A stretch of 43,633 bases of DNA from the IMG/VR virus record IMGVR_UViG_2563366881_000003. One strand, written 5' to 3'. The first letter of the stretch is position 1. Each line of letters begins with the position of its first letter. Both the position numbers and the translations under genes were made by a program. Below the pieces are notes generated by a model. The model saw only the letters and a list, made by a program, of their open reading frames with translations. It was not told the DNA's origin and did not search any database. Origin of the DNA: a virus (taxonomy: Duplodnaviria > Heunggongvirae > Uroviricota > Caudoviricetes). Shown one piece after another: positions 3,137 through 38,400 of the stretch.

Positions 3137-3208
3137 TTCTTGTCTCCATAAAACAAAACCCGCCGTAGCGAGTTCAGATAAAAGAAATCCCCGCGAGTGC
3201 GAGGATTG

Positions 3209-7229: not shown

Positions 7230-7453
7230 TTTCGGTAGGCTTCTACGGCTTCACGAAACATCTTTTCATCGCCAATAAAAGTGGCGATAGTGAATTTAGT
7301 CTGGATAGCCATAAGTGTTTTATCCATTTTGGGGAACTCCTGGCTGATTAAGTACGTCGATGAGTCGTTTCCATCCGTCACGTAATTTACGTGTGATTCG
7401 CTCAAGTAAAGATTCGGAAGGGCAGCCAGCAACAGGCCACCCTGCAATGGCAT
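7214..7453 (-). CDS. Small hypothetical protein (79 aa, or 37 aa from internal ATG at 7327)
   Basis: ORF; internal ATG has a GGAG 9 nt upstream. Confidence 0.3.
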   Translation of the reverse strand: MPLQGGLLLAALPNLYLSESHVNYVTDGNDSSTYLISQEFPKMDKTLMAIQTKFTIATFIGDEKMFREAVEAYRKWRSK

Positions 7454-7541
7454 ATTGCATGGTGTGCTCCTTATTCATTTACACTTGAAATTGCTCCGTG
7501 TATTCACTCGTTGGAATGAATACACAGTGCTTATTCGCAGC

Positions 7542-9241: not shown

Positions 9242-9775
9242 TTACTGGCTCCGTCCATGATTTTCATGAAAGCCATATAGTGCATTGGCTTCTTTCCTTG
9301 CTTGTTTGGCATCATCTAAAAGTTTGAATGAGCCTAGGTATTTTCGTTTTCCATCCACAGTTATCGATGCAACATAAAACCCATGCTCTTTTCTTTCTTC
9401 AACACCTGTAACTCCAGTTGATGAAGATGATTTTAAAGGCATGTTTTTCATATTCTCTTTGAAAGAAACGCTTCTTAAATTGGAGATTCTGTTGTCATCC
9501 TTAACGCCGTTTATGTGATCAATCACATCAGGCCAGTAGCCATGCACGTAAAGCCATGCAAGTCTGTGAGACTTAAATTTTTTACCTCCAATATTTATTC
9601 TCAGATAACCCTTGTTGTCAGGTGAGCCAGCCTTTTTACCTGGATACTTCTTGTTCCACGTCAAGGCAGCTCTGTTATCCGCAAACAAATGCTTTGCTCT
9701 CGGCTTCCAATAAAAGTCACCACTCACAGGATTGTAATGAAGAATCTCCCTTACAGACACTTGAGTAAGATCCAC
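9242..9775 (-). CDS. HNH endonuclease with AP2-like DNA-binding domain (paralog 1)
   Basis: Motif HRLAWLYVHG...IDHINGVKDDNRISNLR, C-terminal GV(T/S)... AP2-like segment; paralogous to three other ORFs in the window. Confidence 0.8.
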   Translation of the reverse strand: MDLTQVSVREILHYNPVSGDFYWKPRAKHLFADNRAALTWNKKYPGKKAGSPDNKGYLRINIGGKKFKSHRLAWLYVHGYWPDVIDHINGVKDDNRISNLRSVSFKENMKNMPLKSSSSTGVTGVEERKEHGFYVASITVDGKRKYLGSFKLLDDAKQARKEANALYGFHENHGRSQ

Positions 9776-10017: not shown

Positions 10018-10725
10018 TTATCCGAATCGCTTGTAATCGATTGACTGCCTAATGAGGACTTTGGCTAGAATGTGAAGTTGCTCTTCTTCACCTTCTTCTA
10101 TGTACCATCGATCATAAGCGGCATTGTCAGAGATGACGGCAAGCCTGTTCTTTTGCATTTGCAGGCGCTTAACGTGCATTGTTTTCCCGTATACAAACAC
10201 ATAAATGCCATCGCCATCAAAATAGGTTATGGATACATCAACAAAGATCTCATCTCCCGGATTGATGGTTCCCTCCATGCTGTCACCGCGAACCGTGATG
10301 ACTTTTACGCTTTCCTGTGGCCTTCCATTAAATAAAATTCTTGCCTGCTCGGGCGTATATTCAATTGCTCTTATCTTTTCTATAAATTCATTGGAAACCA
10401 TGGTTCCTGGCCCGGCGCTCGCCTGAACATCCAATACATCAACACGATAAGAATCATTTGATCTTGATAGATGATTTACCGTGATACCGTCATAATCAGC
10501 ATAGCCATGCAGATATGCAGCAGTAGTTCCCAGCACCGAAGCCAGAGATTCCATCTTGTCTTTTCTTGGTATTGACTCCCCGTTGAACCATTTACTAATG
10601 GCTTTTGGTGTGACCTTAAGCCTGACAGCTAAATCAGCCTGCCTACCATGCAAAGGTAATCCCGCTTTATCACAGGCCAGCGCAAGCCTCTGCGAGAAAG
10701 TTTCACGCTCTTTCTGTTGAACCAT
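10018..10725 (-). CDS. cI: CI-type prophage repressor (HTH plus S24 LexA-like peptidase domain)
   Basis: C-terminal GDSMEGTINPGDEIFVD ... HVKRL (Ser/Lys dyad); start at MVQQKE (ATG 10725) lies inside an operator palindrome with no SD, consistent with a leaderless transcript. Confidence 0.8.
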   Translation of the reverse strand: MVQQKERETFSQRLALACDKAGLPLHGRQADLAVRLKVTPKAISKWFNGESIPRKDKMESLASVLGTTAAYLHGYADYDGITVNHLSRSNDSYRVDVLDVQASAGPGTMVSNEFIEKIRAIEYTPEQARILFNGRPQESVKVITVRGDSMEGTINPGDEIFVDVSITYFDGDGIYVFVYGKTMHVKRLQMQKNRLAVISDNAAYDRWYIEEGEEEQLHILAKVLIRQSIDYKRFG

Positions 10726-10733
10726 AAGTTCAA
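10717..10733. promoter_or_regulatory. Operator (OR3/OR2-like) palindrome TTGAACcataaGTTCAA overlapping the cI start codon
   Basis: 17-bp site with perfect 6-bp inverted half-sites; a second copy occurs 57 bp away. Confidence 0.6.
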
Positions 10734-10745
10734 CTATATTAGGTA

Positions 10746-10790
10746 TTGACTGTACTATCAGTTCCGTCATAATATGAACCATAAGTTCAC
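10746..10790 (+). promoter_or_regulatory. pR-like promoter (TTGACT-16/17-CATAAT) with OR1-like operator TGAACcataaGTTCA at 10775-10789
   Basis: Consensus-like sigma70 hexamers upstream of cro; operator palindrome overlaps the transcription start region. Confidence 0.6.
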
Positions 10791-10804
10791 CACAGGAGAG
10801 AAGC

Positions 10805-11035
10805 ATGAACGAAGTTACGTTTGGAGAAGTTATCAAATCCGTTCGAGTTTCTGTTGTGGCTGATGTTTGTGGACTTACGCCAAAAGCCATCTATAAGTGG
10901 CTTGAGCGTGGTTCTCTGCCGCGTACCGAGTTCACTGGTGAAACCGAATATGCGGATAAGATCGCCAAGGCATCAGGCGGCAAGTACTCAGCAGCACAGA
11001 TTCGCCGTATCGGTAAACAGCAGTTTGTTATGTAA
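10805..11035 (+). CDS. cro: Cro-like repressor
   Basis: 76-aa HTH-like protein divergent from cI, SD AGGAGAG upstream. Confidence 0.7.
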   Translation: MNEVTFGEVIKSVRVSVVADVCGLTPKAIYKWLERGSLPRTEFTGETEYADKIAKASGGKYSAAQIRRIGKQQFVM

Positions 11036-11156
11036 TAAAAATGTACTTTTAGTACCGAACGGCCCGGTATACGGTCGGGTGCCCGGCGTGGTCAAGGATG
11101 ACTGTCAATGGTGCACGATAAAAACCCAAATTATTTACCTATGGAGATAGTAAGAA

Positions 11157-11453
11157 ATGACACAAGCAAGTTACAGCAAGCCAACACAGCGAGAAATTGA
11201 TCGCGCTGAAACTGATTTACTCATCAACCTGTCAACGCTTACCCAGCGCGGTCTGGCAAAGATGATTGGCTGTCATGAATCGAAGATAAGCAGAACGGAC
11301 TGGAGATTTATTGCTTCGGTCTTGTGTGCTTTCGGAATGGCATCAGACATCAGTCCGATTAGCAGGGCTTTTAAGTATGCGCTTGATGAAATCACAAAGA
11401 AAAAATCCCCGGTGGCCGCCGGGGACTCTAAGCAAATTGATATGCAATTCTGA
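11157..11453 (+). CDS. cII: CII-like transcriptional activator
   Basis: C-terminus KKKSPVAAGDSKQIDMQF resembles recalled lambda CII C-terminus (KKRPAATERSEQIQMEF); HTH GLAKMIGCHESKISR. Confidence 0.8.
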   Translation: MTQASYSKPTQREIDRAETDLLINLSTLTQRGLAKMIGCHESKISRTDWRFIASVLCAFGMASDISPISRAFKYALDEITKKKSPVAAGDSKQIDMQF

Positions 11454-11478
11454 GGGAATTACTGGATCAATCCACAGG
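11398..11478 (-). ncRNA. oop-like antisense RNA (candidate)
   Basis: Minus-strand hairpin TCCCCGGcggccaCCGGGGA followed by T6 inside the 3-prime end of cII, with a CATAAT-like -10 about 77 nt upstream; mirrors lambda oop. Confidence 0.4.
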
Positions 11479-11485
11479 AGTCATT

Positions 11486-11647
11486 ATGACAAAACGTCGT
11501 AAGAAATACCAGGAAAAAGAAGAGATTCGACACCCTGATTCACCTGAGGGATTAGTGGTAGCCGCAGCAAATAACAGGGCGTTCGCAGAGCGCCTTGTTG
11601 GTGTTTACAGACTAGCCAAAGCAGGAGTGAAACATGGGCGTCGTTAA
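11486..11647 (+). CDS. Small basic protein, 53 aa, at the cII-O junction
   Basis: ATG with GGAG 7 nt upstream; translated by hand; absent from the 60-aa-minimum ORF track. Confidence 0.4.
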   Translation: MTKRRKKYQEKEEIRHPDSPEGLVVAAANNRAFAERLVGVYRLAKAGVKHGRR

Positions 11648-12464
11648 GTTAGCTGATTACAGGCCTCAACTGGAGGTCGTGGAGCATCGCGTGGCAGAAC
11701 TCGAAGATGGCTACACTCGGACTGCAAACACACTGTTAGAAGCCGCCATGCTTTCTGGACTTACTCTACATCAGTTACTGATTGTTATGGCTGTGTGGCG
11801 CAAGACATACGGTTACAACAAAAAAATAGATTGGATCGGAAACGAACAGTTCGCTGAACTCACTGGCATGGCACCAACCAAATGCTCTACCGCCAAAAAC
11901 GAGCTTATCAGAATGGGAGTTCTCATTCAGGTGGGGCGTCAAGTTGGTATGAATACAAACATTTCCGAGTGGAAAACGAAAGTTAACGGATTCGGTAAAA
12001 CATTTACTAATTCAGTAAAACAAACCTTCACTAAATCGGTAAAAAGCAATTTACCGAATCAGTCAAACACAAAAGACAATATACAAAAGACAATAAATAC
12101 AAATACCCCCTTACCCCCTAACGGGGGCGGCGATGGGAAGGTTAAACCTGAACGTCGCAAGGCAGAACGCATCGACTACGAATCCTTCCTGAACGCCTAC
12201 AACACCGAAGTCGGTGACAGACTGCCACACGCTGTTGCGGTCAACGAGAAACGCAAACGCCGCCTGAAGAAAATCATCCCGCAACTGAAAACGCCAAACG
12301 TGGACGGTTTCAGAGCGTATGTCAGGGCGTTTGTGCATCAGGCCAAGCCGTTTTACTTCGGAGACAACGACACGGGCTGGACGGCCGATTTTGATTACCT
12401 GTTGAGGGAAGATTCGTTAACGGGAGTACGGGAAGGGAAGTTTGCAGACAGGGGGATTGCATGA
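11634..12464 (+). CDS. Replication initiator, lambda O / P22 gp18-like
   Basis: N-terminal region resembles recalled lambda O (…[15 protein letters not shown]…WRKTYGYNK…); internal iteron/AT-rich origin. Confidence 0.8.
11995..12120 (+). repeat. Replication origin: iterons TC(G/A)GTAAAA at 12001, 12021 and 12045 plus AT-rich tract, inside the O-like gene
   Basis: Three direct repeats and one inverted partial copy followed by an A/T-rich stretch, as in ori-lambda. Confidence 0.6.
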
Positions 12465-13837
12465 GACAGGATATCGAAGCTAGCGTTATCGGTGGCCTGC
12501 TGATTGGTGGATTAACACCAACCGCCAGCGACGTTCTGGCAACGCTGGAGCCGGAAGCGTTTTCAATTCCGCTCTACCGGAAAGCCTTCGAGGTTATCCG
12601 CAAGCAGGCGCGAAACAGAAACCTAATCGACGCGCTGATGGTTGCCGAGGCGTGCGGAGAGGAGCATTTCACGTCAATCCTGATGACCAGCAAAAACTGC
12701 CCGAGTGCCGCAAACCTGAAGGGATATGCCGGAATGGTCGCGGATAACTATCACCGCCGTCTGGTGCTGGAAATCATGGATGAAATGCGTGAACCAATTC
12801 AGAGCGGAACCATCGACGCATCGAGTCAAGCGATGGATGAGCTTGTAAAGCGTCTCTCAGCCATCAGAAAGCCCCGTGGCGAGGTTAAACCTGTACGGTT
12901 AGGTGAAATCATCACTGACTACACTGACACGCTTGACAGGCGTCTGAGGAACGGAGAAGAGTCAGATACCCTGAAGACCGGAATCGAAGAACTTGATGCC
13001 ATCACCGGAGGGATGAACGCGGAAGACCTGGTGATAATCGCTGCTCGTCCTGGTATGGGGAAAACCGAGCTGGCGCTGAAGATTGCCGAAGGCGTGGCAA
13101 GTCGTGTTATTCCTGGTTCTGACGTCCGGCGCGGAGTATTGATTTTCTCGATGGAAATGAGCGCATTGCAGATTGCAGAGCGAAGCATTGCCAACGCCGG
13201 GAGGATGTCGGTTAGCGTGCTGCGAAATCCTGCATCGATGGATGACGAAGGCTGGGCACGTGTTGCTAACGGCATGAGTCAGCTTGCAGATTTGGATGTA
13301 TGGGTAGTCGATGCCTCGCGGTTATCGGTCGAAGAAATTCGCTCAATCGCAGAACGGCACAAACAGGAAAATCCAAACCTGTCACTCATCATGGCGGATT
13401 ATCTTGGCCTGATTGAGAAGCCGAAAGCAGATCGCAACGACCTCGCAATTGCTCACATCTCCGGAAGCCTGAAGGCGATGGCGAAAGACCTGAAAACACC
13501 GGTTATCTCCCTGAGTCAGCTTTCGCGCGATGTTGAGAAGCGACCAAATAAACGCCCGACAAACGCAGATTTGCGTGATTCAGGAAGCATTGAGCAGGAC
13601 GCAGACTCAATCATCATGCTCTATCGGGAAGCGGTATATGACGAGAACAGTAGCGCCGCGCCATTTGCTGAAATCATTGTGACGAAAAACCGTTTTGGCT
13701 CACTTGGTACGGTTTACCAGCGATTCTGTAACGGACACTTTGTTGCATGTGACCAGGATGAAGCCAGACAGATTTGCATAGCATCAAATGCACCTGCTTC
13801 GCGTGGCAGACGATATGCACAAGGGGCTGACGTATGA
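12461..13837 (+). CDS. Replicative DNA helicase, DnaB family (P22 gp12-like)
   Basis: 458 aa with Walker [13 protein letters not shown] and DnaB C-terminal motifs. Confidence 0.9.
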
Positions 13838-38323: not shown

Positions 38324-38324
38324 A

Positions 38325-38400
38325 GTTGAAGCCCCAACTGCGGGAACAGTCAGGGCTTCTGTTGTCAGTAAATCCGTGGAGAAAAACCAACATGAATAGT
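38325..38400 (-). ncRNA. sar-like antisense RNA covering the ant ribosome-binding region (candidate)
   Basis: Arc-ant intercistronic hairpin GAAGCCC...GGGCTTC at 38330-38361; P22 has sar here. Confidence 0.35.

Follow-up and report, generated by a model that had tools for sequence, protein, structure and literature searches.

A predicted oop antisense RNA and the small basic gene gp53 at the cII–O junction of a lambdoid phage

Introduction

The short interval between cII and the O-like replication gene in the viral record IMGVR_UViG_2563366881_000003 raises the question of what is encoded there on either strand, namely whether the minus strand specifies an antisense RNA of the oop kind and whether a 53-codon open reading frame on the plus strand is a gene. 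The initial annotation of this DNA, made from the letters of the sequence, had proposed both. The two elements are not new as such: the oop RNA of lambdoid phages and the gp53 family of phage HK97 are already known (phrog_1331; Hayes et al., 2012, PMC3349717), and the layout cII-oop-orf-O-P has been described in 23 lambdoid phages (Hayes et al., 2012, PMC3349717).

In phage lambda, oop pairs with the 3′ end of cII, RNase III cleaves the duplex, and CII drops, according to work of Krinke & Wulff (1987, 1990) as cited in PMC3349717 and PMC7067206. The last 17 residues of CII are needless for its activity and are required for oop control (PMC3349717), and firing of the oop promoter pO dampens convergent transcription from pR and affects replication (PMC3985674). 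The phenotype of lambda oop is modest. In P22 an oop RNA of 63 nt with the 5′ sequence GAUUGAUCCAGU has been recovered by small-RNA sequencing (PMC13397905), and the P22-like prophage BTP1 has an OOP RNA, OOP-BTP1, that was annotated on the basis of transcriptome data (PMC7067206).

The analysis presented here favors, with a probability of roughly 85%, the reading of this region as a cII-oop-gp53-O junction that combines a pO-driven oop RNA of ∼77 nt with a real small basic gene, gp53.

Results

Gene order around the junction

The window, which is the whole stretch of 43,633 nt that was analyzed, is a mosaic lambdoid E. coli phage or prophage of the type represented by P22, HK620, and CUS-3. 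Its closest phages are Kapi1, JEP4, CUS-3, HK629, and HK620, at 94–97% identity with ∼38% of the first 25 kb covered; over positions 11129–11710, comprising cII, gp53, and the start of O, the DNA is ∼96% identical to that of HK97. The genes that frame the junction are as follows.

Upstream of cro, minus strand: cI-like repressor gene, with HTH and Peptidase_S24 domains
10805–11035: cro
11157–11453, plus strand: cII (Pfam Phage_CII, E = 3.8e-32; phrog_191)
11486–11647, plus strand: ORF53, a gene of the HK97 gp53 family (53 codons; phrog_1331)
11634–12464, plus strand: O-like replication initiator gene (Pfam Phage_rep_O, E = 4.2e-36; phrog_345), with its Shine-Dalgarno (SD) sequence GGAG at 11624–11627, inside ORF53
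12461–13837: DnaB-like helicase gene

The repressor ORF called by the program (10018–10890, minus strand, 290 aa) extends back across the start of cro. Its HTH and Peptidase_S24 domains agree with a shorter product of about 238 aa or less, beginning at 10734, and the true start of the repressor is therefore probably internal. Adjoining the repressor gene is an ORF of 177 aa (9242–9775, minus strand) that encodes an HNH_3 endonuclease domain (Pfam, E = 2.7e-15); this ORF may have entered the immunity region as an insertion of the homing-endonuclease type. Farther away, two elements matched Rfam models over their full length: sar RNA at 38324–38391 (minus strand, 92 bits, E = 1.6e-18), a sign that the phage has an immI (ant) region of the P22 type, and the lambda cIII thermoregulator (RF01804) at 7415–7473 (minus strand, 88.5 bits).

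The minus strand carries a homolog of lambda oop

The elements proposed for the antisense transcript, and the conserved block in which it begins, are located as follows.

11475 to ∼11399, minus strand: predicted oop antisense RNA of ∼77 nt, its 5′ end placed by alignment with lambda
11429 to 11402, minus strand: tO, the hairpin that terminates oop (stem of 11 bp, loop of 6 nt), with a U-tract after it at 11401–11396
11488 to 11483, minus strand: −10 hexamer CATAAT of pO, with TG at 11491–11490 (TGTCATAAT, an extended −10)
11461–11493, no strand assigned: conserved mosaic boundary sequence (bsq5, or "sequence 5", of phage Sf6, from the Sf6 annotation and the text to Fig. S1 of PMC3349717)

The minus strand was aligned with lambda positions 38599–38720, and on the evidence of this alignment the interval from 11475 to ∼11399 is the ortholog of lambda oop (pO/tO, 77 nt, lambda 38675–38599). 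The initial annotation had described a minus-strand intrinsic terminator inside the 3′ end of cII and a CATAAT-like element ∼77 nt upstream. Both are present: the terminator has 11 pairs and a T-run, and the start aligned with lambda, G11475, yields an RNA of 77 nt. The description as oop-like is borne out beyond the mirrored arrangement, since homology to lambda oop exists at the level of sequence and the −10 element, start context, fold, and terminator are all conserved. The 5′ end of the P22 RNA as mapped by RNA-seq would correspond to position 11472 here.

The predicted RNA is identical to lambda oop at 58 of 79 positions (73%), with 24/28 in the 5′ part and 19/28 in the terminator, and to the HK97 and HK022 versions at 74 of 80 positions (93%); it is the HK97/HK022 allele and not the lambda allele. 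Like its lambda counterpart, it has two hairpins, an intrinsic terminator, and a start in the spacer before the next gene, and 55 nt of it are complementary to cII, which ends at 11453, the cII stop codon included; the overlap of lambda oop with the end of cII is likewise 55 nt (PMC3349717). The predicted fold consists of a 5′ hairpin and the terminator (−31.2 kcal/mol, z = −4.6), comparable with the two hairpins of lambda oop (−28.5 kcal/mol, z = −4.3). Apart from the −35 region, which is unrelated to that of lambda, the differences lie in the 3′ arm of the 5′ hairpin, which is in another register (ATCAAT/ATTGAT here versus CTGGAT/ATCCAG in lambda), and in the terminator stem, which differs at 5 of 11 pairs, all of them compensated or wobble.

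The terminator stem-loop, AGAGTCCCCGG-CGGCCA-CCGGGGATTTT followed by TTCTTT, has 6 G-C pairs among its 11 and falls within the final 55 nt of cII. Under a strict criterion (at least 9 pairs, at least 5 of them G-C, and at least 6 T in 8), only two sites were found on both strands of the 43.6-kb window, one of which is tO, as compared with 0.17 expected per shuffled window. The other site, at 3186–3207 on the minus strand, reads AATCCTCGC-ACTC-GCGGGGATT followed by TCTTTTATCT. Twenty distinct variants of the lambda and HK97 types were gathered from phage records and IMG/VR; standard pairs fill all 220 of their terminator pair cells, with compensatory double changes between classes at two pairs (CG to or from UA, and GC to or from CG). 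Substitutions private to the window relative to HK97 also preserve pairing, changing AU to GU twice and UG to CG once. An Rfam scan gave no oop match in the window; lambda's own oop is unmatched too, there being no Rfam oop model, and the silence of Rfam on the window is therefore uninformative.

A pO-oop-tO element is present in every cII/c1 class examined. In phages of the c1 type (Sf6, ES18, and phages of Erwinia, Cronobacter, and Enterobacter) the RNA is shorter and the terminator stems are very different, in the same position. In 13 of 15 distant enterobacterial prophages, from Edwardsiella to Brenneria, a minus-strand hairpin with a U-tract lies 58–73 nt downstream of a −10-like hexamer, which overlaps the start codon of a small ORF. 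Both RNAs known from experiment, P22 oop (63 nt, with the same 5′ sequence) and OOP-BTP1, are shorter than the RNA predicted here. Their 5′ hairpin is minimal and their terminator stem unrelated, since the activator gene of these phages is another allele, c1.

The promoter retains the lambda −10 block with a different −35 region

A 20-nt block containing the −10 element and the start, TTTGTCATAATGACTCCTGT (11474–11493), is identical to that of lambda pO, as are the upstream TG and the spacing, in which CATAAT precedes the start by seven nt. Homology to lambda ends directly upstream of ATGACAAA, so that the lambda −35 hexamer TTGAGT is replaced by a poor one. The candidates at 11512–11506, within codons 7–9 of gp53, are weak (TGGTAT at 17 nt and CTGGTA at 18 nt), and because of this poor −35 the consensus promoter scan of the window did not call pO. 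The replacement of the lambda −35 and the miss by a generic scan suggest that pO may be weaker here than in lambda. A lambda/P22 hybrid with the lambda −10 and a foreign −35 is on record (PMC3349717).

Among 20 divergent gp53 loci, most retain a −10-like hexamer, often with a −35-like hexamer at constant spacing. Distant loci of the gp53 type have good −35 hexamers (TTGAAT, TTGAGT, TTGAAA) 16–17 nt from TATAAT-like −10 elements, which argues that the promoter is maintained in the gp53 context. The heptamer CCTGGTA (11506–11512, minus strand) occurs at a fixed 18 nt upstream of the pO −10 here, in HK022, and in 12 other loci. It covers the codons for Y-Q-E/D both in gp53 and in the otherwise unrelated orf48 of P22 and HK022, and its distance to the −10 stays constant in loci whose −10 is displaced by 3 nt; it may be a −35-region element of pO in phages with gp53 or orf48. 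Lambda pO has a LexA box; no convincing CTGT-N8-ACAG sequence was seen in the window.

One boundary sequence joins three kinds of right-hand module

The 33-nt block at 11461–11493 holds the 5′ end of oop, the pO −10 element, an SD sequence, and the first codons ATG ACA AA. The CAT of the pO −10 hexamer is, on the opposite strand, the ATG of ORF53, and the ORF53 SD with its first codons (GGAGTCATTATGACAAA) is the same SD/ATG that starts gene O of lambda. This "boundary sequence 5" has been used for aligning 23 lambdoid phages (Hayes et al., PMC3349717).

The block was examined in 120 IMG/VR loci, of which 115 had a readable ORF, together with six phage loci and the window, giving 122 sites. The ORF beginning at the block ATG is of the gp53 type at 45 of these sites, lambda O at 44, of the HK022/P22 orf48 type at 25, and an ORF with a T5orf172 domain at 3. 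All nine combinations of three cII/oop classes with three right modules (lambda O, gp53, and orf48) occur in the IMG/VR loci, which fits a recombination joint. The T5orf172/MUG113-domain ORF (214 aa, Pfam E ∼1e-15; for example in IMG/VR loci L052 and L115) takes the place of gp53 or orf48, opening at the conserved ATG of the pO −10 block and preceding an O-like gene.

Each small ORF goes with its own O gene start. In 41 of 41 IMG/VR loci of the gp53 type, gp53 leads with a 14-nt overlap into an O gene that begins MGVVK... and diverges afterwards, and orf48 leads, always with an 8-nt overlap, into an O gene that begins MSN. P22/HK022 orf48 (hkaW in HK620) shares with gp53 the slot between oop and an O-like gene, the SD with ATG ACA AA, the small size, and the overlap with O. 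Homology between the two proteins was considered and rejected: hhalign gave a probability of 0.7% over residues 1–12 only, and orf48 is absent from the matches of the gp53 HMM. The first 12 residues of both proteins are encoded by DNA of the pO core promoter, and the N-terminal residues that they share (MTK..YQ[ED]K) appear better explained by the promoter and the boundary sequence.

ORF53 is a conserved protein-coding gene

The initial annotation had placed a basic 53-aa ORF with a good GGAG at 11486–11647, running across the junction and overlapping the start of O by 14 nt, and all of these particulars agree with the sequence. The SD (GGAG, 11477–11480, plus strand) stands 5 nt before the ATG, the last 14 nt overlap O, and the product has a pI of 10.7 with 14 K + R and 6 D + E residues. 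The ORF was absent from the ORF track available to the initial annotation and was in that respect correctly called unannotated, but it is annotated elsewhere, in HK97 (gp53), Sf6 (gene 42), HK629, and Stx phages. The protein matches phrog_1331, a family of unknown function, over its entire length (E = 1.4e-37, residues 1–53 on profile positions 1–53), and it is 100% identical to HK97 gp53 and to the product of Sf6 gene 42. These genes and ES18 gp58, also members of PHROG 1331, occupy the same slot between cII or c1 and O with the same 14-nt overlap. The ORF53 DNA is identical to the HK97 copy, of which it is a plain counterpart with no notable difference. The identical protein is found in 61 phage records, including HK629, mEp and HK phages, and many Stx phages, and the exact sequence occurs on at least 1000 contigs under the labels "hypothetical" or "prophage protein".

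Conservation at the protein level, a check named in the initial annotation, is evident from diverged copies. Comparison with those of Cronobacter ENT47670, Erwinia EhrS_49, and Enterobacter ENT1 (75–79% protein identity) gives dN/dS values of 0.07–0.15 at dS of 1–2. In an alignment of 20 sequences from 13 genera the variable sites at codon positions 1, 2, and 3 number 33, 29, and 52 of 52, every third position thus being variable, and pN/pS is 0.26 in codons 5–28, a region without known overlapping signal. These substitution patterns identify ORF53 as a real protein-coding gene under purifying selection.

A profile of the family, searched against 1.84 billion representatives, picked out 24 proteins, all of 84 aa or less and without a link to any known domain, and gp53 itself had no match in Pfam, NCBIfam, or the PDB sequences; gp53 is a narrow enterobacterial orphan family. 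The AF2 model (pLDDT 68) has a disordered charged N-terminus rich in K, R, and E and an amphipathic helix at residues 20–46, and a Foldseek search of the model against viral structures found no meaningful neighbor (best E = 4.8). No functional study of HK97 gp53 or P22 orf48 was found in the literature; the "orf48 = gnarl1" of PMC12373910 refers to a library number of that screen. The best guess at present is that gp53 serves the replication module as an accessory factor and is not essential.

A hairpin within the gp53 message

11577–11595, plus strand: mRNA hairpin in ORF53, codons R31–L37, with a core of 8 bp, extended to 13 bp at 11572–11600 in the window

This hairpin is the only consensus structure found by RNAalifold at the gp53-O junction, where no conserved structure sequestering the O ribosome-binding site was seen in the gp53 family; the probability that the O SD is unpaired is 0.27–0.42. 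The hairpin is paired in 155 of 160 pair cells (96.9%) when 20 distinct sequences, drawn from 13 genera, are compared, and two pairs covary (GC/CG/GU/UG and GC/GU/AU). When synonymous codons were resampled the number of paired cells was 122.7 ± 3.5, and none of 5000 resamplings reached the observed pairing; the resampling null ignores shared ancestry, and selection on the hairpin is therefore suggested rather than proven. The many G·U pairs mean that the structure can work only as plus-strand RNA. No earlier description of a hairpin inside gp53 was found in the literature.

The ORFs of the orf48 type (HK022, positions 697–871 of locus L003; IMG/VR L015 and L023) contain another 8-bp hairpin, CAGCCUGG-N6-CCGGGCUG, ∼40 nt before the O start. 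For these loci RNAfold, the only program applied, predicts a long-range pairing that buries the SD and AUG of O.

Discussion

Expression and function of the proposed elements

Expression of oop in this phage, and its effect, can be projected by analogy with lambda. Host RNA polymerase would start at pO, across the start codon of ORF53 on the minus strand, produce an RNA of ∼77 nt, and stop at the intrinsic terminator in the dispensable C-terminal tail of cII. The RNA would then pair with the final 55 nt of the cII mRNA and with the intergenic spacer, RNase III would cut the duplex, and the resulting drop in CII synthesis would favor lytic growth. Firing of pO against pR may in addition adjust how much rightward transcription reaches the replication genes. 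As for the plus strand, its pR transcript would be translated from the SD and ATG that lambda uses for O, which here open gp53, a gene of 53 codons inserted between the boundary sequence and O. The stop codon of ORF53 is reached 14 nt into O and the SD of O lies within ORF53, from which we infer translational coupling, such that ribosomes finishing gp53 probably feed the translation of O. The RNAalifold result for the junction, in which no conserved structure hides the O ribosome-binding site, lends this coupling no support.

A further, decidedly improbable proposal is that gp53 is a K/R-rich RNA-binding protein that recognizes the hairpin of its own message at 11577–11595 and thereby autoregulates the translation or stability of gp53-O. 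As such it would bear a loose likeness to the arginine-rich peptides of N proteins.

Alternative explanations

The antisense transcript might be doubted on the grounds that the minus-strand hairpin and the CATAAT hexamer are by-products of coding in the cII tail and the start of ORF53 and that no antisense RNA is made here. The poor −35 and the missing consensus promoter call would be expected in that case, but P22 also lacks the lambda −35 and yet makes oop (PMC13397905), and the −10 block is identical to that of the proven lambda promoter. Chance is a poor source of such a terminator, as the count in shuffled windows indicates. Nor does coding readily account for it, since the hairpin and U-tract are kept with compensatory changes across cII classes whose tail sequences differ, and the CII tail itself, without which CII stays active, is needed for oop control (PMC3349717). 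An origin of these signals as by-products is accordingly considered very improbable, and the reading with a pO-driven oop RNA is retained.

ORF53, on the other hand, might be a translated spacer or leader, in which the transit of ribosomes matters, whether for coupling to O, for protection from Rho or RNase, or for unfolding of the hairpin, and the peptide has no function. Several observations are compatible with this: lambda does without gp53 and starts O at the same ATG; HK022 and P22 have an unrelated 48-codon ORF in the same place with its 8-nt overlap with O; an mRNA hairpin is conserved in gp53 and a different one occurs in orf48 at a similar distance from the O start; and gp53 showed no domain or structural homology in the searches made. 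A functionless peptide would, however, not be expected to keep its amino acids over the full length while synonymous sites approach saturation, as the dN/dS values of diverged copies and the pN/pS of codons 5–28 indicate. Even in the loop of the hairpin, at codon A34, the GC at positions 1 and 2 is kept and position 3 is free, which is a coding signature. Because of this amino-acid conservation a mere translated spacer is unlikely. The overlap also invites the question of whether ORF53 and O are one protein, joined by a programmed frameshift within the shared 14 nt, given that O is in the +1 frame relative to ORF53. Such a fusion was rejected on sequence grounds and its probability is negligible: the GGAG and ATG that belong to O itself are conserved in all relatives; the segment GTG AAA CAT GGG CGT CGT TAA contains no slippery heptamer, and a +1 or −2 shift would be needed; and lambda-type O proteins of similar length carry no such N-terminal extension. 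Taken as two adjoining elements, the oop RNA and the gp53 gene give the preferred account of the junction.

Implications for lambdoid phages

In the main these results confirm textbook lambdoid biology, and they allow oop/pO and gp53 to be annotated here with confidence; novelty is limited to the role of gp53 and to its internal hairpin. A single block of 33 nt serves as the 5′ end of oop, the −10 element of pO, a ribosome-binding site, a start codon, and a recombination joint, and as a consequence of these multiple roles three unrelated right modules (lambda O, gp53 with O, and orf48 with O) share their first codons. The gene gp53 is very widespread, with at least 1000 contigs, Shiga-toxin phages included, and it is under selection in a region that controls replication. 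If gp53 did recognize its own message, phages of the HK97, Sf6, and Stx types would gain a layer of control over replication initiation that is absent from lambda. In a weaker version, the hairpin alone, which appears from its pairing pattern to be selected, would be a new cis-regulatory element for the expression of O.
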